Assembly: GCF_003790525.1 (NCBI RefSeq)
Contig: NZ_CP033635.1
Length of the DNA: 64,000 nt
DNA from: Escherichia coli
GTDB lineage: Bacteria; Pseudomonadota; Gammaproteobacteria; Enterobacterales; Enterobacteriaceae
Direction: 5' to 3' (one strand)
Part shown: piece by piece, positions 396 through 62,700 of the stretch
Layout of the letters: each line of letters opens with the position of its first letter
Position numbering within the stretch: position 1 is the stretch's first letter
Program-made: the position numbers and the translations under genes
The notes under the pieces: generated by a model
The model's input: the letters and a program-made list of their open reading frames with translations, nothing else
What the model was told of the DNA's origin: nothing
Database searches by the model: none

Positions 396-525
396 AATGT
401 CTACCGCGTGATGGCTGTCACGCGGTATTTCGTTTCGTCACGTCAAAACTGACGACAGCCTGTTTTTCGTCAGAGTTTTGAATAAATAGTGCCCGTAATA
501 TCAGGGAATGACCCCAAATAAAATG

Positions 526-541
526 TGGCATAAAAGATGCA
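526..541 (+). promoter_or_regulatory. sigma54 (-24/-12) promoter of fdhF
   Basis: TGGCATaaaagATGCA matches the GG-N10-GC sigma54 consensus about 50 bp upstream of the fdhF ATG; direct repeats containing CGTC/GACG at about 421..473 resemble the FhlA upstream activating site. Confidence 0.6.
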
Positions 542-592: not shown

Positions 593-2740
593 ATGAAAAA
601 AGTCGTCACGGTTTGCCCCTATTGCGCATCAGGTTGCAAAATCAACCTGGTCGTCGATAACGGCAAAATCGTCCGGGCGGAGGCAGCGCAGGGGAAAACC
701 AACCAGGGTACCCTGTGTCTGAAGGGTTATTATGGCTGGGACTTCATTAACGATACCCAGATCCTGACCCCGCGCCTGAAAACCCCCATGATCCGTCGCC
801 AGCGTGGCGGCAAACTCGAACCTGTTTCCTGGGATGAGGCACTGAATTACGTTGCCGAGCGCCTGAGCGCCATCAAAGAGAAGTACGGTCCGGATGCCAT
901 CCAGACGACCGGCTCCTCGCGTGGTACGGGTAACGAAACCAACTATGTAATGCAAAAATTTGCGCGCGCCGTTATTGGTACCAATAACGTTGACTGCTGC
1001 GCTCGTGTCTGACACGGCCCATCGGTTGCAGGTCTGCACCAATCGGTCGGTAATGGCGCAATGAGCAATGCTATTAACGAAATTGATAATACCGATTTAG
1101 TGTTCGTTTTCGGGTATAACCCGGCGGATTCCCACCCAATCGTGGCGAACCACGTAATTAACGCTAAACGTAACGGGGCGAAAATTATCGTCTGCGATCC
1201 GCGCAAAATTGAAACTGCGCGCATTGCTGACATGCACATTGCATTGAAAAACGGCTCGAACATCGCGCTGTTGAATGCGATGGGCCATGTCATTATTGAA
1301 GAAAATCTGTACGACAAAGCGTTCGTCGCTTCCCGTACAGAAGGCTTTGAAGAGTATCGTAAAATCGTTGAAGGCTACACGCCGGAGTCGGTTGAAGATA
1401 TCACCGGCGTCAGCGCCAGTGAGATTCGTCAGGCGGCACGGATGTATGCCCAGGCGAAAAGCGCCGCCATCCTGTGGGGCATGGGTGTAACCCAGTTCTA
1501 CCAGGGCGTGGAAACCGTGCGTTCTCTGACCAGCCTCGCGATGCTGACCGGTAACCTCGGTAAGCCACATGCGGGTGTAAACCCGGTTCGTGGTCAGAAC
1601 AACGTACAGGGTGCCTGCGATATGGGCGCGCTGCCGGATACGTATCCGGGATACCAGTACGTGAAAGATCCGGCTAACCGCGAGAAATTCGCCAAAGCCT
1701 GGGGCGTGGAAAGCCTGCCTGCTCATACCGGTTATCGCATCAGCGAGCTGCCGCACCGCGCAGCGCATGGTGAAGTGCGTGCCGCGTACATTATGGGCGA
1801 AGATCCGCTACAAACTGACGCGGAGCTGTCGGCAGTACGTAAAGCCTTTGAAGATCTGGAACTGGTCATCGTTCAGGACATCTTTATGACCAAAACCGCG
1901 TCGGCGGCGGATGTCATTTTACCGTCAACGTCATGGGGCGAGCATGAAGGCGTGTTTACTGCGGCTGACCGTGGCTTCCAGCGTTTCTTTAAAGCAGTTG
2001 AACCGAAATGGGATTTGAAAACGGACTGGCAAATCATCAGTGAAATCGCCACCCGTATGGGTTATCCGATGCACTACAACAACACCCAGGAGATCTGGGA
2101 TGAGTTGCGTCATCTGTGCCCGGATTTCTACGGTGCGACTTACGAGAAAATGGGCGAACTGGGCTTCATTCAGTGGCCTTGTCGCGATACTTCAGATGCC
2201 GATCAGGGGACTTCTTATCTGTTTAAAGAGAAGTTTGATACTCCGAACGGTCTGGCGCAGTTCTTCACCTGCGACTGGGTAGCGCCAATCGACAAACTCA
2301 CCGACGAGTATCCGATGGTACTGTCAACGGTGCGTGAAGTCGGTCACTACTCTTGCCGTTCGATGACCGGTAACTGTGCGGCACTGGCGGCGCTGGCTGA
2401 TGAACCTGGCTACGCACAAATCAATACCGAAGACGCCAAACGTCTGGGGATTGAAGATGAGGCATTGGTTTGGGTGCACTCGCGTAAAGGCAAAATTATC
2501 ACCCGTGCGCAGGTCAGCGATCGTCCGAACAAAGGGGCGATTTACATGACCTACCAGTGGTGGATTGGTGCCTGTAACGAGCTGGTTACCGAAAACTTAA
2601 GCCCGATTACGAAAACGCCGGAATACAAATACTGCGCCGTGCGCGTCGAGCCGATCGCCGATCAGCGCGCCGCCGAGCAGTATGTGATTGACGAGTACAA
2701 CAAGTTGAAAACTCGCCTGCGCGAAGCGGCACTGGCGTAA
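593..2740 (+). CDS. fdhF: Formate dehydrogenase H (selenoprotein, Mo-bisMGD); in-frame UGA at 1010..1012 read as selenocysteine
   Basis: ORFs 593..1012 and 1061..2740 are in the same frame and separated only by TGA; N-terminal CxxC..C Fe-S motif and molybdopterin oxidoreductase-like sequence; combined length 715 aa. Confidence 0.93.
1013..1057 (+). promoter_or_regulatory. Bacterial SECIS stem-loop directing Sec insertion at the fdhF UGA
   Basis: Immediately 3' of the UGA: CACGGCCCATCGGTTGCAGGTCTGCACCAATCGGTCGG can fold into a hairpin with a GGUC apical loop, as in the known fdhF SECIS. Confidence 0.8.
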
Positions 2741-3523: not shown

Positions 3524-3675
3524 TGTAGGCCTGATAAGACGCGTTAATCGTCGCATCAGGCGTTGATGTCGGATGCGGCGTAAACGCCTTATCCGACCTA
3601 CAAAATCACGCTAAATCAGGCTATTGCGCTGTCTGACGTAGGCCTGATAAGACGCGGCAAGCGTCGCATCAGGCA
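3524..3675. repeat. REP/BIME cluster (palindromic units)
   Basis: Repeated GTAGGCCTGATAAGACGCG...CGCATCAGGC and GCCGGATGCGGCGTAAACGCCTTATCCG units in inverted orientation. Confidence 0.85.
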
Positions 3676-5369: not shown

Positions 5370-5966
5370 TTAATCTGATCTCCGCTGCAACAGTTTCGCC
5401 AAATTAATCGACTCGACCAGCTGTGTCCGGTTGATCCGGGGTGAGTTGAGATCCATCACTTTTTGCCATAGTTCGATGGCTTGCGCGTAATTCGCCTGCA
5501 TAAACGCATCGGAAGCCAGCAGCATCAGAGCGGTGATTTCGTTAGAGTCCAGCGCGAGGGCTTTGTCGATCATTGCGCGAGTCTGGGCGGTCATATGCTG
5601 GCTGGCCTGGTAATAAAGCACCGTCGCCAGCGCCGCATACAGTTCAGCGTTCTCACCACGTAGTTGCAACGCCTGACGGTACGCCAGCAGCGAATTGCTG
5701 TAATCGTTTTGCCACAGATAATACTCGCCCAGTAACGCCCATTGTTCGCTGTTTTGTGGATTAGCGCGGATTTTATCCTGCAATGCCTGAAGCTGCGCTT
5801 CCGGGGTTTGCTGGCTGGCAAACTGATGTAGCGGATCGCGCTGACGTTGATACTCCGCACGTACCGCCTGCCATTTTGGGCTTAACAGATAACTGCCGAT
5901 ACAGAGAAATACCATCAAAATCGTGAGTGTTGTCAGCATTTTCACCGGTATTTGAGGCTGTTTCAT
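5370..5966 (-). CDS. nrfG: TPR-repeat heme lyase accessory protein for NrfA
   Basis: ORF 5370..6032 contains [13 protein letters not shown] start giving 198 aa; overlaps nrfF stop (ATGA coupling). Confidence 0.85.
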
Positions 5967-14103: not shown

Positions 14104-14222
14104 TTGCCGGATGCGATCCGGGCAACAAGTCGGAAACGATTTGTAGGCCTGATAAGACGCGACAGCGTCGCATCAGGCATTGATTGCCGGATGCGGCATA
14201 TAACGCCTTATCCAGCCTACAT
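14104..14222. repeat. REP/BIME cluster
   Basis: GCCGGATGCG... and GTAGGCCTGATAAGACGCG...CGCATCAGGC units between acs and yjcH. Confidence 0.85.
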
Positions 14223-19911: not shown

Positions 19912-20052
19912 ATCAACACCAACCGGAACCTCCACCACGTGCTCGAATGAGGTGTGTTGACGTCGGGGGAAACCCTCCTGTGTACCAGCGGGATAGAGAG
20001 AAAGACAAAGACCGGAAAACAAACTAAAGCGCCCTTGTGGCGCTTTAGTTTT
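19912..20052 (+). ncRNA. sraL: Small RNA SraL (RyjA), convergent with and overlapping the 3' end of soxR
   Basis: Intergenic ghxP-soxR region ending in hairpin AAAGCGCCCttgtGGCGCTTT plus T-run on the + strand; sequence matches my recollection of SraL; 5' end approximate. Confidence 0.5.
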
Positions 20053-24107: not shown

Positions 24108-26930
24108 ATGGATAAGATCGAAGTTCGGGGCGCCCGCACCCATAATCTCAAAAACATCAACCTCGTTATCCCCCGCGACAAGCTCATTGTCGTGACCGGG
24201 CTTTCGGGTTCTGGCAAATCCTCGCTCGCTTTCGACACCTTATATGCCGAAGGGCAGCGCCGTTACGTTGAATCACTTTCCGCCTACGCGCGGCAGTTTC
24301 TGTCACTGATGGAAAAGCCGGACGTCGATCATATTGAGGGGCTTTCTCCTGCCATCTCAATTGAGCAGAAATCAACGTCTCATAACCCGCGTTCTACGGT
24401 GGGGACAATCACCGAAATCCACGACTATTTGCGTTTGTTGTTCGCCCGCGTCGGCGAGCCGCGCTGTCCGGACCACGACGTCCCGCTGGCGGCGCAAACC
24501 GTCAGCCAGATGGTGGATAACGTGCTGTCGCAGCCGGAAGGCAAGCGTCTGATGCTGCTCGCGCCAATCATTAAAGAGCGCAAAGGCGAACACACCAAAA
24601 CGCTGGAGAACCTGGCAAGTCAGGGTTACATCCGTGCTCGTATTGATGGCGAAGTCTGCGATCTTTCCGATCCGCCGAAACTGGAACTGCAAAAGAAACA
24701 TACCATTGAAGTGGTGGTTGATCGCTTCAAGGTGCGTGACGATCTTACCCAACGTCTTGCCGAGTCGTTTGAAACCGCGCTGGAGCTTTCCGGTGGTACC
24801 GCGGTAGTTGCGGATATGGACGACCCGAAAGCGGAAGAGTTGCTGTTCTCCGCTAATTTCGCCTGCCCAATTTGCGGCTACAGTATGCGTGAACTGGAGC
24901 CGCGACTGTTTTCGTTTAACAACCCGGCAGGGGCCTGCCCGACCTGTGACGGCCTTGGCGTGCAGCAATATTTCGATCCTGACCGCGTGATCCAGAATCC
25001 GGAACTGTCGCTGGCTGGCGGTGCGATCCGTGGCTGGGATCGCCGCAACTTCTATTATTTCCAGATGCTGAAATCGCTGGCAGATCACTATAAGTTCGAC
25101 GTCGAAGCGCCGTGGGGCAGCCTGAGCGCGAACGTGCATAAAGTGGTGTTGTACGGTTCTGGCAAAGAAAACATTGAATTCAAATACATGAACGATCGTG
25201 GCGATACCTCCATTCGTCGTCATCCGTTTGAAGGCGTGCTGCACAATATGGAGCGCCGTTATAAAGAGACGGAGTCCAGCGCGGTACGCGAAGAATTAGC
25301 CAAGTTCATCAGCAATCGCCCGTGCGCCAGCTGCGAAGGGACGCGTCTGCGTCGGGAAGCGCGCCACGTGTATGTCGAGAATACGCCGCTGCCTGCTATC
25401 TCCGACATGAGCATTGGTCATGCGATGGAATTCTTCAACAATCTCAAACTCGCAGGTCAGCGGGCGAAGATTGCGGAAAAAATTCTTAAAGAGATCGGCG
25501 ATCGTTTGAAATTCCTCGTTAACGTCGGCCTGAATTACCTGACGCTTTCCCGCTCGGCAGAAACGCTTTCTGGCGGTGAAGCCCAGCGTATTCGTCTGGC
25601 GAGCCAGATTGGTGCGGGCCTGGTTGGCGTTATGTACGTGCTGGATGAGCCGTCTATCGGCCTGCACCAGCGCGATAACGAGCGCCTGTTGGGTACGCTT
25701 ATCCATCTGCGCGATCTCGGTAATACCGTGATTGTGGTGGAGCACGACGAAGACGCGATTCGCGCGGCTGACCATGTGATCGATATCGGTCCTGGTGCGG
25801 GTGTTCACGGCGGTGAAGTGGTCGCGGAAGGTCCACTGGAAGCGATTATGGCGGTGCCGGAGTCGTTGACCGGACAGTACATGAGCGGTAAACGCAAGAT
25901 TGAAGTGCCGAAGAAACGCGTTCCGGCGAATCCGGAAAAAGTGCTGAAGCTGACGGGTGCACGCGGTAATAACCTGAAAGACGTGACGCTAACGCTGCCA
26001 GTCGGTCTGTTTACCTGCATCACAGGGGTTTCAGGTTCCGGTAAATCGACACTGATTAACGACACACTGTTCCCGATTGCCCAACGCCAGTTGAATGGTG
26101 CGACCATCGCCGAACCGGCACCGTATCGCGATATTCAGGGACTGGAGCATTTCGATAAAGTGATCGATATCGACCAAAGCCCAATTGGTCGTACTCCGCG
26201 TTCTAACCCAGCGACCTATACCGGCGTGTTTACGCCTGTGCGCGAACTGTTTGCGGGCGTACCGGAATCCCGTGCGCGCGGCTATACGCCGGGACGTTTC
26301 AGCTTTAACGTCCGTGGCGGACGCTGCGAAGCCTGTCAGGGCGACGGCGTGATCAAAGTGGAGATGCACTTCCTGCCGGACATTTACGTACCGTGCGACC
26401 AGTGTAAAGGTAAACGCTATAACCGTGAAACGCTGGAGATTAAGTACAAAGGCAAAACCATCCACGAAGTGCTGGATATGACCATCGAAGAGGCGCGTGA
26501 GTTCTTTGATGCGGTGCCAGCTCTGGCGCGTAAGCTGCAAACGCTGATGGACGTTGGTCTGACGTACATTCGCCTGGGGCAGTCCGCAACCACCCTTTCA
26601 GGCGGTGAAGCCCAGCGCGTGAAGCTGGCGCGTGAGCTGTCAAAACGCGGCACCGGGCAGACACTGTATATTCTCGACGAGCCGACCACCGGTCTGCACT
26701 TCGCCGATATTCAGCAACTGCTCGACGTGCTGCATAAACTGCGCGATCAGGGCAATACCATTGTGGTGATTGAACACAATCTCGACGTGATCAAAACCGC
26801 TGACTGGATTGTCGACCTGGGACCGGAAGGCGGCAGTGGCGGCGGCGAGATCCTCGTCTCCGGTACGCCAGAAACCGTCGCGGAGTGCGAAGCTTCGCAT
26901 ACGGCACGCTTCCTCAAGCCGATGCTGTAA
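24108..26930 (+). CDS. uvrA: Excinuclease ABC subunit A
   Basis: 940 aa, two ABC ATPase modules (GxSGSGKS x2) and zinc-finger CxxC motifs. Confidence 0.96.
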
Positions 26931-33767: not shown

Positions 33768-34751
33768 ATGGCAACACGAATTGAATTTCACAAGCACGGT
33801 GGCCCGGAAGTACTTCAAGCCGTAGAGTTCACTCCTGCCGATCCGGCGGAGAATGAAATCCAGGTCGAAAATAAAGCCATCGGCATCAATTTTATCGACA
33901 CGTATATCCGCAGCGGCCTTTACCCGCCGCCATCGCTCCCCAGCGGATTAGGTACCGAAGCGGCAGGCATCGTGAGTAAAGTCGGCAGTGGTGTAAAGCA
34001 TATTAAGGCAGGCGATCGTGTAGTCTATGCGCAGTCGGCGTTAGGCGCTTACAGCTCGGTGCATAACATTAATGCGGATAAAGCGGCGATTCTGCCTGCG
34101 GCAATTTCTTTTGAGCAAGCGGCGGCATCCTTCCTGAAAGGCTTAACGGTTTATTATCTGCTGCGCAAAACCTATGAAATTAAACCCGATGAGCAGTTCC
34201 TGTTCCACGCAGCGGCTGGCGGCGTTGGCTTAATTGCCTGCCAGTGGGCAAAAGCCCTGGGCGCGAAACTTATCGGCACCGTAGGAACCGCGCAAAAAGC
34301 GCAGAGCGCGCTAAAAGCCGGCGCGTGGCAGGTTATTAACTATCGTGAAGAGAATCTGGTCGAGCGATTGAAAGAGATCACCGCTGGTAAGAAAGTGCGC
34401 GTGGTGTACGATTCCGTGGGCAGAGACACCTGGGAACGGTCGCTGGATTGCCTGCAACGCCGCGGCTTAATGGTGAGTTTTGGCAACTCATCAGGTGCGG
34501 TTACCGGTGTGAACTTAGGCATTCTCAATCAGAAAGGCTCGTTGTATGTGACACGCCCTTCCCTGCAAGGCTATATCACCACGCGGGAGGAATTAACCGA
34601 GGCCAGTAATGAACTGTTCTCTTTGATTGCCAGCGGTGTGATTAAGGTCGATGTCGCCGAGCAGCAGAAATATCCGCTGAAGGATGCGCAGCGTGCGCAT
34701 GAGATTCTGGAAAGCCGGGCGACGCAAGGTTCCAGCCTGTTGATTCCATAA
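33768..34751 (+). CDS. qor: NADPH:quinone oxidoreductase (zeta-crystallin family)
   Basis: 327 aa from MATRIEFHKHGGPEVL; MDR fold; terminator hairpin 34760..34790. Confidence 0.93.
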   Translation: MATRIEFHKHGGPEVLQAVEFTPADPAENEIQVENKAIGINFIDTYIRSGLYPPPSLPSGLGTEAAGIVSKVGSGVKHIKAGDRVVYAQSALGAYSSVHNINADKAAILPAAISFEQAAASFLKGLTVYYLLRKTYEIKPDEQFLFHAAAGGVGLIACQWAKALGAKLIGTVGTAQKAQSALKAGAWQVINYREENLVERLKEITAGKKVRVVYDSVGRDTWERSLDCLQRRGLMVSFGNSSGAVTGVNLGILNQKGSLYVTRPSLQGYITTREELTEASNELFSLIASGVIKVDVAEQQKYPLKDAQRAHEILESRATQGSSLLIP

Positions 34752-34916
34752 AAGAAATAGGGCTTCCACCTGGGAAGCCCTTTCTTTTTATAGTTCGGCT
34801 GTATGTAGGGTACAGCACGATGAATCTGTTAGAGGCGCAATAGTGACAGATTTGATTATCAATTCCTATTTTGTTCTAAGGATAAAACCTTAGGTTGTGA
34901 TCATCCGCACAATCCA

Positions 34917-35159
34917 TTAGTAACGCCAGCGGTCATAACGCTGATATTTCGGCACTTTTGGTGCTTTAATCGCCTTAATAACCCACACCACCGCAACCGC
35001 CAGTAGTAACCACGGCAGCAACTTAATCATCAATGCCAGCATACCGCCGAGGAACATAATGGCCGTCGCCACAACCAGCGCGGCGATAATGCCCAGCAAC
35101 GAAACGCCGGTGACCATCAGCATGACAAAAAAGCCAATCACAAAAAGTAGTTCCAGCAT
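34917..35159 (-). CDS. pspG: Phage shock protein G
   Basis: 80 aa hydrophobic protein MLELLFVIGFF... ending KYQRYDRWRY. Confidence 0.85.
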   Translation of the reverse strand: MLELLFVIGFFVMLMVTGVSLLGIIAALVVATAIMFLGGMLALMIKLLPWLLLAVAVVWVIKAIKAPKVPKYQRYDRWRY

Positions 35160-35193
35160 GATGCTCTCCCAAATATGAAATCTCTTGCAGGCA

Positions 35194-35210
35194 TTACAAG
35201 AATCATGCCA
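35194..35210 (-). promoter_or_regulatory. sigma54 promoter of pspG
   Basis: Minus-strand TGGCATgattcTTGTAA (GG-N10-G[TC]) about 35 bp upstream of the pspG start. Confidence 0.55.
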
Positions 35211-35292
35211 AAAATAATCTATTGATTTAACAGCAAAACGCCCCGCGACGGTGCGCAGGGCGTGGTGAATTTGACTACTTTTTGGTGAAAAG

Positions 35293-36336
35293 TTAACGCT
35301 TATCCGCCACCAGTTTGAGCGCGTGTTCCAGCACATTAATGTCTGCACCCGCTTTATGGGCATTTTCACTTAAATAACGCCGCCACTGCCGCGCGCCAGG
35401 AATACCCTGGAACAAGCCCAGCATATGCCGGGTAATATGGCCGAGATACGTCCCCTGGCTGAGTTCACGCTCAATGTACGGATACATGGCGCGCACTACC
35501 GCCACCGGATCGGCATCGGTATCCGAGGAACCAAAAATCTCTCGGTCTACCGCCGCCAGAATCCCCGGATTCTGATACGCTTCGCGCCCGACCATCACGC
35601 CATCCATATGTTGCAAATGCGCTTTAGCCTCTTCCAGCGACTTGATACCACCGTTAATCGACATTGTCAGATGCGGAAAGTCACGCTTCAGTTGATACAC
35701 ACGCGGATAATCGAGCGGCGGGATTTCACGGTTTTCTTTCGGGCTTAACCCCGAAAGCCAGGCTTTACGTGCGTGGATGATGAACATCTCACACTCGCCT
35801 TTGCCGGAAACGGTGTTGATGAAATCGCAGAGAAATTCATAGCTGTCCTGGTCGTCAATGCCAATACGCGTTTTCACCGTCACCGGAATCGACACCACAT
35901 CGCGCATCGCTTTCACGCAGTCGGCAACCAGCTGCGCATTACCCATCAGACACGCCCCAAACATGCCGTTCTGCACCCGGTCAGACGGGCAGCCGACATT
36001 CAGGTTGATCTCATCATATCCGCGCGCTTCTGCCAGCTTTGCACACTGCGCCAGCGCCGCCGGATCGCTACCGCCCAGTTGCAATGCTACCGGATGTTCT
36101 TCTTCACTGTACGCCAGGTAATCACCTTTACCGTGAATAATCGCCCCTGTAGTCACCATTTCGGTATACAGCAACGTATTGCGGGAAAGCAGACGCAAGA
36201 AATAGCGGCAATGTCTGTCCGTCCAGTCGAGCATTGGTGCAACGCTAAACCGACCACTCCAGTGAACGTCAGTTTTTTCAGGCATTGCGCTGGTTTGGTT
36301 GATTTTTTGCATTTCAGAATTACCGTGCATTTTCAA
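35293..36336 (-). CDS. dusA: tRNA-dihydrouridine synthase A
   Basis: Dus family TIM-barrel flavoenzyme; longest ORF 347 aa, true start may be one of the in-frame Met codons a few residues downstream. Confidence 0.9.
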
Positions 36337-36691: not shown

Positions 36692-37696
36692 TTATTTTTC
36701 TAACTCAGTACCTAATAGGACATAAATGAACTTAATAATATCTTCGTTAATTAGATCGTTGTCATTTATATTTTTGTCATCCATATCTTTACCAATTATA
36801 ATTGGTCCCGTTGAGTCCGGGTCAAATGATTGAATAAATTTAATTAAAGTCTCACCTGCAGCCTGCATTTTTGTAATGTTTTTGATGTCTTCTTTTTCTT
36901 CTCCGGCCTGATTTTTCATCTCCTGCAGAATTACATTAAAATCCAATTCTTTTTTATCTATCAAGTCTTTCAGCTCCGCCAGGTTTTTTTTCATCACTTG
37001 ACGAGATAATATTTTTATCTGACTTTTTATGTAGTTTTCACAATCATCATTAACTCTCTCTGCTGCTCCTATGATATCTGCTGATGCACTATCATATGAA
37101 AATGAAAGTAAAAGGGAGGCCAGGGGTTTTAAGCGAGTATCTTTCTTTACATTATATGCATTTTCCAAATTTAAAAAGCCTTCGCTTACTGTTTTTAGAT
37201 GTAATGACGCTACAGGTGCTTTACAATAGGATTTATCATAAAATAGCTGAATCGTGGAGGGAAGGCCATTATGATTTATTACGTCGAAAGTACACTTGTC
37301 TATTAGAGTTACATCGCTATTTTCCATTGGATTACAAACAAAATTCATCGCGTAATGAAAAATCGCCCGATCCACAAATGCAGAAATATAGTCACGATCA
37401 CCTAATTGCTCATTAGTGCACTGATCAATACACTCCTCAACCCAATTTTTGAGAGCATCTATTCGCTTAATTAAGGAAACATTATTATCACTTGCAGTCC
37501 ATAAATTATGGGTGATTCTCTGAATAAACAAATCTATTTTTGCAATAATCGCAGCGCGATTACTCATCGTTGCATAATCAACCGATTTATTATATATATC
37601 CTTTATTTTTTCTTTGCTCGCATCTTTAATTTCGTATTGATTTGAATGGAGTGTATTATTGAAGAATTCTGTTGCACTTGAAATTATACCTGACAT
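36692..37696 (-). CDS. Orphan hypothetical protein in AT-rich islet (334 aa)
   Basis: Single intact ORF, K/D/E/N/I-rich, no signal peptide or TM segment, visibly AT-rich with atypical codon usage; occupies the dusA-zur interval where K-12 carries the uncharacterised yjbL/yjbM (from memory). Confidence 0.5.
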
Positions 37697-60258: not shown

Positions 60259-60568
60259 AACAATTTCCCTTCATTGAATGAATGGAGATTTACCCAAAAA
60301 CATTTCGGGCGGGATCGAGTATACACAACTAAAGCATGCGAATTACGGCGCGGGTAATTAGTGATGGGGTTTTAGGATAATTGGAATGAATATCAAATAT
60401 AAGCTTCAGATTATATATAAATAACACTAAAAATCATAAGCTTAAAATAAAAATAAAAGTAATTAATCTGCGTATTTTCCGAAATCAATCACGATTAAAA
60501 ATCTATTTTAGGATTAACCTCACGGTATGATTTCCGTTAAATCACAGACAAGGGGATTTATCTGATAA

Positions 60569-60600
60569 AAAATGCCGACATAACGTCGGCATTTTTATTA
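60569..60600. terminator. Bidirectional terminator downstream of pgi
   Basis: AAAAAATGCCGACataaCGTCGGCATTTTTATT. Confidence 0.8.
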
Positions 60601-60611
60601 GGGTTATTTAA

Positions 60612-62261: not shown

Positions 62262-62504
62262 TAGCAATACTCTTCTGATTTTGAGAATTGTGACTTTGGA
62301 AGATTGTAGCGCCAGTCACAGAAAAATGTGATGGTTTTAGTGCCGTTAGCGTAATGTTGAGTGTAAACCCTTAGCGCAGTGAAGCATTTATTAGCTGAAC
62401 TACTGACCGCCAGGAGTGGATGAAAAATCCGCATGACCCCATCGTTGACAACCGCCCCGCTCACCCTTTATTTATAAATGTACTACCTGCGCTAGCGCAG
62501 GCCA

Positions 62505-62700
62505 GAAGAGGCGCGTTGCCCAAGTAACGGTGTTGGAGGAGCCAGTCCTGTGATAACACCTGAGGGGGTGCATCGCCGAGGTGATTGAACGGCTGGCCAC
62601 GTTCATCATCGGCTACAGGGGCTGAATCCCCTGGGTTGTCACCAGAAGCGTTCGCAGTCGGGCGTTTCGCAAGTGGTGGAGCACTTCTGGGTGAAAATAG
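62505..62700 (+). ncRNA. Lysine riboswitch (L-box) in the lysC leader
   Basis: Long structured 5' leader (about 320 nt) upstream of lysC containing AGAGGCGC...TTGCC...GGAGGAGCCAG L-box-like core; aptamer boundaries approximate. Confidence 0.65.

Follow-up and report, generated by a model that had tools for sequence, protein, structure and literature searches.

The spacer between dusA and pspG in the 64-kb stretch of Escherichia coli DNA analysed here (the window) carries the sigma-54 promoter 17-mer TTGGCATGATTCTTGTA at positions 35195..35211 of the minus strand, and we conclude, with a probability of roughly 97%, that this site is the sigma-54 promoter of pspG already known to depend on PspF and IHF, pspG being a gene of the phage-shock (Psp) regulon. 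The motif belongs to the few sigma-54 promoters that are confirmed, and neither the observation nor its interpretation is new. The evidence comes from two sources—the sequence elements of the spacer, how they are conserved and spaced, the covarying stem of the dusA terminator, and the likeness of an upstream block to the pspA enhancer were observed here; sigma-54 occupancy, PspF binding, 20-fold induction, and in-vitro activity are taken from the literature. Nothing was seen in the sequence that contradicts this reading.

Locus and spacer layout

The spacer measures 133 bp (35160..35292), exactly the range given by an earlier sequence-only reading of this DNA, and runs from the TAA stop codon of dusA (35293..35295, minus strand; open reading frame list and RefSeq) to the ATG of the co-directional pspG (35157..35159, minus strand). 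Both genes had been named correctly by that reading: the pspG coding sequence (34917..35159, minus strand; open reading frame list and RefSeq) encodes an envelope stress response membrane protein of 80 aa and matches the Pfam family Phageshock_PspG (PF09583, E = 2.1e-25), the dusA frame matches Pfam Dus (E = 8e-105), and RefSeq annotates the flanking genes as dusA and "pspG: envelope stress response protein PspG". The start of dusA is a TTG in the mechanical open reading frame list (347 aa) and lies two codons later in RefSeq (345 aa; 36330 vs 36336, minus strand). Over 601 bp around the spacer, the sequence agrees 100% with that of E. coli SMS-3-5. Among 5,426 complete E. coli genomes, 5,424 contain this stretch at 95% identity or above.

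Read 5' to 3' on the minus strand, the spacer region presents in turn the dusA stop, a putative PspF enhancer, a terminator, an IHF consensus site, the -24/-12 promoter, a Shine-Dalgarno sequence, and the pspG ATG; from 35295 to 35157 the order is TAA, CT, TTTCACCAAAAAGTAGTCAAATTCACCACG, CCCTGCGCACCGTCGCGGGGCGTTTTGCTGTTA, AATCAATAGATTA, TTT, TTGGCATGATTCTTGTA, ATGCCTGCAAGAGATTTCATATTT, GGGAGAG, CATC, and ATG. On the far side of pspG, between the convergent genes pspG and qorA, a terminator scan of both strands found a hairpin that has T-runs on either strand (34759..34781) and is probably the terminator of a monocistronic pspG transcript and common to qorA.

An Rfam scan of 34500..35700 (E <= 1) gave no RNA family in the dusA-pspG spacer. 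Two matches elsewhere in that interval—CRISPR-DR31 within dusA and, on the pspG/qorA terminator hairpin, ctRNA_p42d—scored well below the gathering score and were taken as chance. Above the gathering score, the window holds the sraL sRNA (19912..20052, plus strand), STnc430 (60455..60603, plus strand), a lysine riboswitch (62498..62694, plus strand), and three minus-strand copies of the repeat-derived family naRNA4 (3528..3598, 14146..14217, and 48622..48692).

Upstream of dusA lies a 334-aa open reading frame of the DUF2713 family (36692..37696, minus strand; Pfam E = 9e-58), annotated likewise in SMS-3-5. Its GC content of 31-35%, against 54-56% in dusA, suggests that this frame is horizontally acquired DNA. 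At the same position K-12 presumably carries the shorter genes yjbL and yjbM.

Sigma-54 promoter motif

The 17-mer was located by weight matrix, pattern search, conservation, and identity to a ChIP-seq motif. Its -24 element has GG at 35209/35208, and its -12 element, like that of pspA, reads GT (35197/35196) where the consensus has GC; the sigma-54 consensus TGGCAC-N5-TTGCW, with GG and GC 10 bp apart, therefore appears here as TGGCAT-N5-TTGTA (35210..35195). The sequence-only reading had placed its version of the motif, TGGCATGATTCTTGTAA, at 35210..35194 on the minus strand, a position that proved exactly right, and its distance of about 35 bp to the pspG ATG compares with the 34 bases that we count between the two.

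The site lies on the pspG strand, with its predicted transcription start 25 nt before the ATG. This start, 35184 on the minus strand, is placed by the rule of 19 bp downstream of the motif centre and by the distance of "25" in Table 1 of PMC4591121; the exact base is a prediction, and the pspG leader would be 25 nt long. A Shine-Dalgarno sequence, GGGAGAG (35164..35170, minus strand), ends 4 nt before the ATG, and GGGAGA directly upstream of the ATG is kept in most orthologues.

How much the motif says by itself can be judged from shuffled sequence. The pattern TGGCAYN5TTGYW has this single match on both strands of the 64-kb window; with 0.56 matches expected by chance, and at least one in 41 of 100 shuffles, the bare pattern is not significant. 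We also built a sigma-54 weight matrix from the 41 intergenic-sense ChIP-seq motifs in Table 1 of Bonocora et al. 2015 (PMC4591121), with pspG left out. Such matrix scoring had been named beforehand as a check, and the pspG site ranks first on both strands of the window, with 17.5 bits (35211..35195) against a training median of 15.7; a score of 17.5 bits is reached somewhere by 17% of Markov shuffles of 64 kb. The motif alone is thus unexceptional in 64 kb, and the case for it therefore rests on its position, its conservation, and published experiments.

The second-best matrix match in the window, GTGGCATAAAAGATGCA (525..541, plus strand), is the known fdhF promoter, ChIP-seq site OS41, and belongs to the training set. 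The fdhF frame follows at 593..2740 (plus strand), starting at 593 and interrupted by its selenocysteine TGA at 1010..1012, with an Rfam SECIS_2 match of 87 bits within the gene (1005..1059, plus strand). Four further matches are taken as chance because they score below the mean maximum of shuffled sequence: TTGGCGAAACTGTTGCA (5386..5402, minus strand, 14.9 bits) and CTGGCGCGTAAGCTGCA (26523..26539, plus strand, 14.3 bits), both probably accidental, together with 1227..1243 and 44249..44265. None of the four appears in the main text of the ChIP-seq paper (PMC4591121).

Conservation across Enterobacterales

A PspG protein scan of species-representative genomes yielded 80 orthologous loci from about 30 genera, among them Escherichia, Citrobacter, Salmonella, Enterobacter, Klebsiella, Raoultella, Kluyvera, Leclercia, Lelliottia, Yersinia, Rahnella, Brenneria, and Biostraticola. 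The order dusA-pspG is kept in 79 of these loci, the exception being a fragment of 547 bp, and a sigma-54 site stands upstream of pspG in all 80 (10.4-19.2 bits, median 16.65). When the 74 distinct Enterobacteriaceae sequences are aligned on the promoter (alignment A1), the bases T.G.CA.G..T.TTG are invariant and the TAA that follows is more than 90% conserved.

Individual loci depart from this picture in several ways. In Citrobacter werkmanii NBRC 105721 (L026:1449-1465) the -24 element reads TTGTCAT rather than TTGGCAT, so that the second G of the GG is lost; its 10.4 bits are the lowest score among all loci, and the change may reflect a weakened promoter or a sequencing error. The pspG leaders of Salmonella enterica subsp. 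arizonae (L017:1446-1500) and diarizonae (L029:1447-1500) are about 33 nt longer, with 68-69 nt from the 17-mer to the ATG vs 34-36 in Escherichia and most Citrobacter loci. What lengthens them is an inserted GC-rich palindrome, GACCCGGTAAGCGC.GT.CCGCCGGGC, that resembles a REP-type element. The diarizonae locus also has TTGCT, with the canonical GC, in place of TTGTA in its -12 region. Much longer leaders, of 59-190 nt, are found in the five distant loci from Yersinia, Biostraticola, Rahnella, and Brenneria (L077-L080 and L082).

Spacing varies by lineage as well. From the start of the putative enhancer block to the -24 G there are 82 bp in Enterobacteriaceae and 90, 91, 92, 104, and 104 bp in the five distant loci—Biostraticola and Brenneria account for 90-92 bp, Yersinia and Rahnella for 104 bp—and the increments amount to approximately one or two helical turns.

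Published evidence for the promoter

Letter for letter, TTGGCATGATTCTTGTA upstream of pspG is OS40, a ChIP-seq peak for sigma-54, listed with a fold-above-threshold (FAT) value of 15, a start predicted to lie 25 bp from the gene, and a "C" that marks experimental confirmation in EcoCyc (Bonocora et al. 2015, PMC4591121). In the same work pspG rises on sigma-54 overexpression, as one of only five such genes with intergenic sites, with "pspA and pspG by PspF" (PMC4591121). The orthologous Salmonella site, TGGCATGATTTTTGTAAG, is 39-fold enriched in sigma-54 ChIP-chip, and microarray induction of Salmonella pspG by a promiscuous activator is only 1.4-fold (PMC3844500). The pspG promoter has also served as a template for in-vitro sigma-54 transcription, in a study that remarks on the identity of its -12 and -24 elements with those of pspA (PMC4641871). 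The claim of the sequence-only reading that pspG has a sigma-54 promoter here is therefore right, and is established knowledge (PMC4591121; PMC3844500; PMC4641871).

These data also bear on whether the motif could be a functionless chance match to the sigma-54 consensus. The pattern expectation and the shuffle frequencies given above allow for such a match; however, the site is correctly oriented towards a known sigma-54-dependent gene in the 133-bp spacer ahead of it, it recurs with invariant core bases in all 80 loci from about 30 genera, and sigma-54 binds it in vivo in both E. coli (PMC4591121) and Salmonella (PMC3844500). We regard a chance origin as next to impossible, and as already refuted by the published ChIP data together with the conservation.

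Regulation by PspF is documented for both Psp promoters: PspF binds the upstream activating sequences (UASs) of the pspA and pspG promoters, and whereas pspA has two UASs and is induced 100-fold, pspG has one UAS and is induced 20-fold (Mehta et al. 2013, PMC3709507). Deletion of the pspG promoter alters PspF dynamics and basal pspA expression (PMC3709507). The Psp regulon comprises pspABCDE, pspF, and pspG, and PspF is not known to have sites elsewhere (Huvet et al. 2011, PMC3041696). For the coordinates of the UAS and the IHF site of pspG, literature searches gave secondary statements only.

IHF site

A perfect match to the IHF consensus WATCAANNNNTTR, namely AATCAATAGATTA, was found by pattern scan at 35215..35227 (minus strand), with 3 bases between its end and the 17-mer (counted as a gap of 4 in the orthologue count). 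A 2004 abstract by Lloyd and co-workers reportedly describes pspG as sigma-54-, PspF- and IHF-dependent, with IHF as an activator and with negative control by PspA. Among the papers accessible here we found no direct statement that IHF activates pspG, and the main text of a genome-wide IHF ChIP paper mentions neither pspG nor dusA (PMC3333857).

The match alone is weak evidence, because the consensus is short and has 7 matches in the window vs 2.5 expected. Conservation adds to it. The strict consensus is found in 33 of the 80 loci, and a looser pattern, ..WCA[A/T/G]....TTR, stands 4-5 bp (6 in L052) from the 17-mer in 71 of 74 Enterobacteriaceae loci, with no match in L024, L028, and L029; the five distant loci have 14-15 bp here by the orthologue count. 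The CA and TTA of the site are invariant or nearly so in alignment A1. These observations point to an IHF core at 35227..35215, in which the exact bases contacted by IHF are putative.

Putative PspF enhancer

Directly 3' of the dusA stop codon lies a conserved 30-bp block, TTTCACCAAAAAGTAGTCAAATTCACCACG (35261..35290, minus strand), for which alignment A1 gives the consensus TTTCACTAAAAGTTAGTCAAATTCACCACG with a central ACTAA-N3-TTAGT dyad. Unlike the adjacent terminator hairpin, the block is conserved in primary sequence and shows no covariation. Several lines of evidence connect it with PspF. The heptamer TTCACCA occurs twice in the block, 20 bp apart, and TTCRCYA-N13-TTCRCYA has no other match in the 64-kb window; in the K-12 pspF-pspA intergenic region TTCGCCA and TTCGCTA are likewise 20 bp apart, around a TAGT that is central to both enhancers. 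When a matrix built from the pspG block alone was run on a 3-kb K-12 pspF-pspA locus, the two best matches, on both strands, fell inside the pspF-pspA intergenic region with 16.0 and 9.8 bits, compared with a null maximum from 300 shuffles of -8.7 on average (sd 4.7, highest 11.3). The stretch 35277..35260 reads TAGTCAAATTCACCACGC and agrees at 11 of 18 positions with the PspF enhancer consensus TAGTGTAATTCGCTAACT, which a review tabulates and attributes to Lloyd et al. (PMC4987338). Matrix, consensus agreement, and 20-bp spacing together suggest a PspF-related UAS upstream of the pspG promoter, and we infer that the block is that UAS and which bases in it PspF would contact.

The block could conceivably serve another purpose, as a dusA 3'-UTR element or a piece of the terminator, in which case PspF would bind at another place, such as inside the end of the dusA coding sequence. 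Its 3' end does overlap the first 3 bases of the terminator stem, and its agreement with the published consensus is only 11/18; against this, it is conserved as primary sequence beside a hairpin that covaries, its matrix picks out, on both strands and far above the null, the pspF-pspA intergenic region that contains the pspA enhancer, and its repeats share the spacing of those at pspA. Moreover, in Yersinia, Rahnella, and Brenneria, where the flanks have diverged, what is kept upstream of pspG is the ACTAA-N3-TTAGT-type dyad (e.g., GACTAACTGTTAGTC in Brenneria roseae). We consider a role unrelated to PspF quite unlikely and retain the block as the candidate enhancer. The sequence-only reading had suggested that AT-rich sequence upstream of the promoter could hold both the IHF and the PspF sites; this holds for IHF (35227..35215) but not for PspF, whose putative site (35290..35261) lies beyond the GC-rich terminator.

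dusA terminator and read-through

Between the enhancer block and the IHF site, a terminator scan, folding, and covariation converge on the hairpin at 35238..35263 (minus strand), whose 10-bp stem contains 8 GC pairs and closes a loop of 6 nt, with UUUU directly after it (35237..35234). The RNA folds with -19.1 kcal/mol (z = -2.96). Across 74 orthologues 96.5% of cells are paired, compensatory changes occur in 8 of the 10 pairs, none of 500 shuffles is as good, and no slid register comes close. By structure, U-run, and conservation the hairpin is an intrinsic terminator of dusA, with termination itself a prediction. Klebsiella indica (L074:1393-1420) is the sole aligned locus in which unrelated AT-rich sequence replaces the hairpin; its enhancer block, IHF site, and promoter are kept.

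The terminator is relevant to whether pspG might be expressed mainly by read-through from dusA, or from a sigma-70 promoter in the spacer, with a sigma-54 site that is as non-productive as many intragenic ones. Most of the 135 sigma-54 ChIP-seq sites are intragenic and their productivity is unknown (PMC4591121), pspG begins only 133 bp behind dusA on the same strand, and some basal read-through of any terminator is plausible. However, a GC-rich, covarying hairpin with a U-run separates dusA from the pspG promoter, a sigma-70 scan of 34700..35600 gave no candidate on the pspG strand, EcoCyc lists the promoter as confirmed by experiment, and pspG responds both to sigma-54 overexpression (PMC4591121) and, 20-fold, to induction via PspF (PMC3709507). 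This alternative is very improbable and can be treated as effectively excluded. The independent, stress-inducible promoter proposed by the sequence-only reading is, in turn, supported by the PspF-dependent induction (PMC3709507), and the covarying terminator speaks against transcription that reads through from dusA only.

We leave open a role for the terminator beyond termination because it is kept inside the enhancer-promoter loop across Enterobacterales and because the lineage distances step by approximately one or two helical turns. Its DNA might act as a phased spacer or insulator, with dusA transcription through the enhancer tuning PspF occupancy or basal pspG expression; dusA transcription would then stop about 30 bp before the closed complex. 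We offer this as a speculation that is unlikely to prove correct—the evidence here is neither for nor against a coupling of dusA to the enhancer.

Comparison with known promoters

The closest relative is the K-12 pspG (yjbO) promoter, pspGp, which is the same element in another strain: the 17-mer TTGGCATGATTCTTGTA, the dusA/pspG flanks, and the predicted 25-nt leader are identical. There is no substantive difference between the two; the window strain is identical to SMS-3-5 here, and the region lies in reverse orientation.

The pspA promoter shares the -24 and -12 elements of pspG, including the unusual T at -12 (TTGGCACGCAAATTGTA in pspA vs TTGGCATGATTCTTGTA in pspG). An IHF-like site, AATCAAAAAGATA, ends 5 bp before the pspA 17-mer, compared with 3 bp for the pspG site, and both enhancers consist of TTCRCYA repeats. 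Upstream of the -24 G, these repeats stand at a distance of 94 and 74 bp in pspA and of 81 and 61 bp in pspG, that is, 13 bp closer. The surroundings differ as well: the pspA enhancer is also the operator of the divergent pspF promoter, whereas the pspG enhancer sits at the 3' end of a co-directional gene, dusA, whose terminator falls inside the loop.

Like glnAp2, nifH, hycA, and other promoters of this type, pspG has a -24 GG and a -12 element at fixed spacing, with an IHF bend between these and an upstream enhancer at about -80 to -110. It differs from those promoters in that its IHF site, centred near -37, abuts the -24 element and its -12 dinucleotide is GT, not GC. Its activator is also distinct, since PspF, unlike generic bacterial enhancer-binding proteins (bEBPs), lacks a sensory domain and is controlled in trans by PspA (PMC4987338). 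The conserved terminator inside the enhancer loop, the IHF site abutting -24, and the lineage distances in approximately whole helical turns are slightly unusual; nothing in them contradicts the known picture, and a new mechanism behind them is unlikely.

Mechanism and significance

From the layout and the literature, the following sequence of events can be proposed. Sigma-54 RNA polymerase would bind the -24 GG and -12 GT elements (35211..35195) as a closed complex that is unable to open alone. PspF, an enhancer-binding ATPase, would occupy the block after the dusA stop (35290..35261, about -78 to -107), and an IHF-induced bend at 35227..35215 (about -31 to -43) would bring it to the polymerase. 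ATP hydrolysis by PspF would then open the promoter, and transcription starting near 35184 would give a short monocistronic pspG mRNA. In the absence of envelope stress PspA would keep PspF inactive, and secretin mislocalisation or loss of the proton-motive force would release it. The dusA transcript would end at 35263..35238, inside the enhancer-promoter loop, so that pspG expression would be uncoupled from dusA.

The significance of these results lies in annotation, with little import beyond it: the base-level map of the spacer, and a layout that is kept across about 30 genera, help to annotate pspG in other Enterobacterales.
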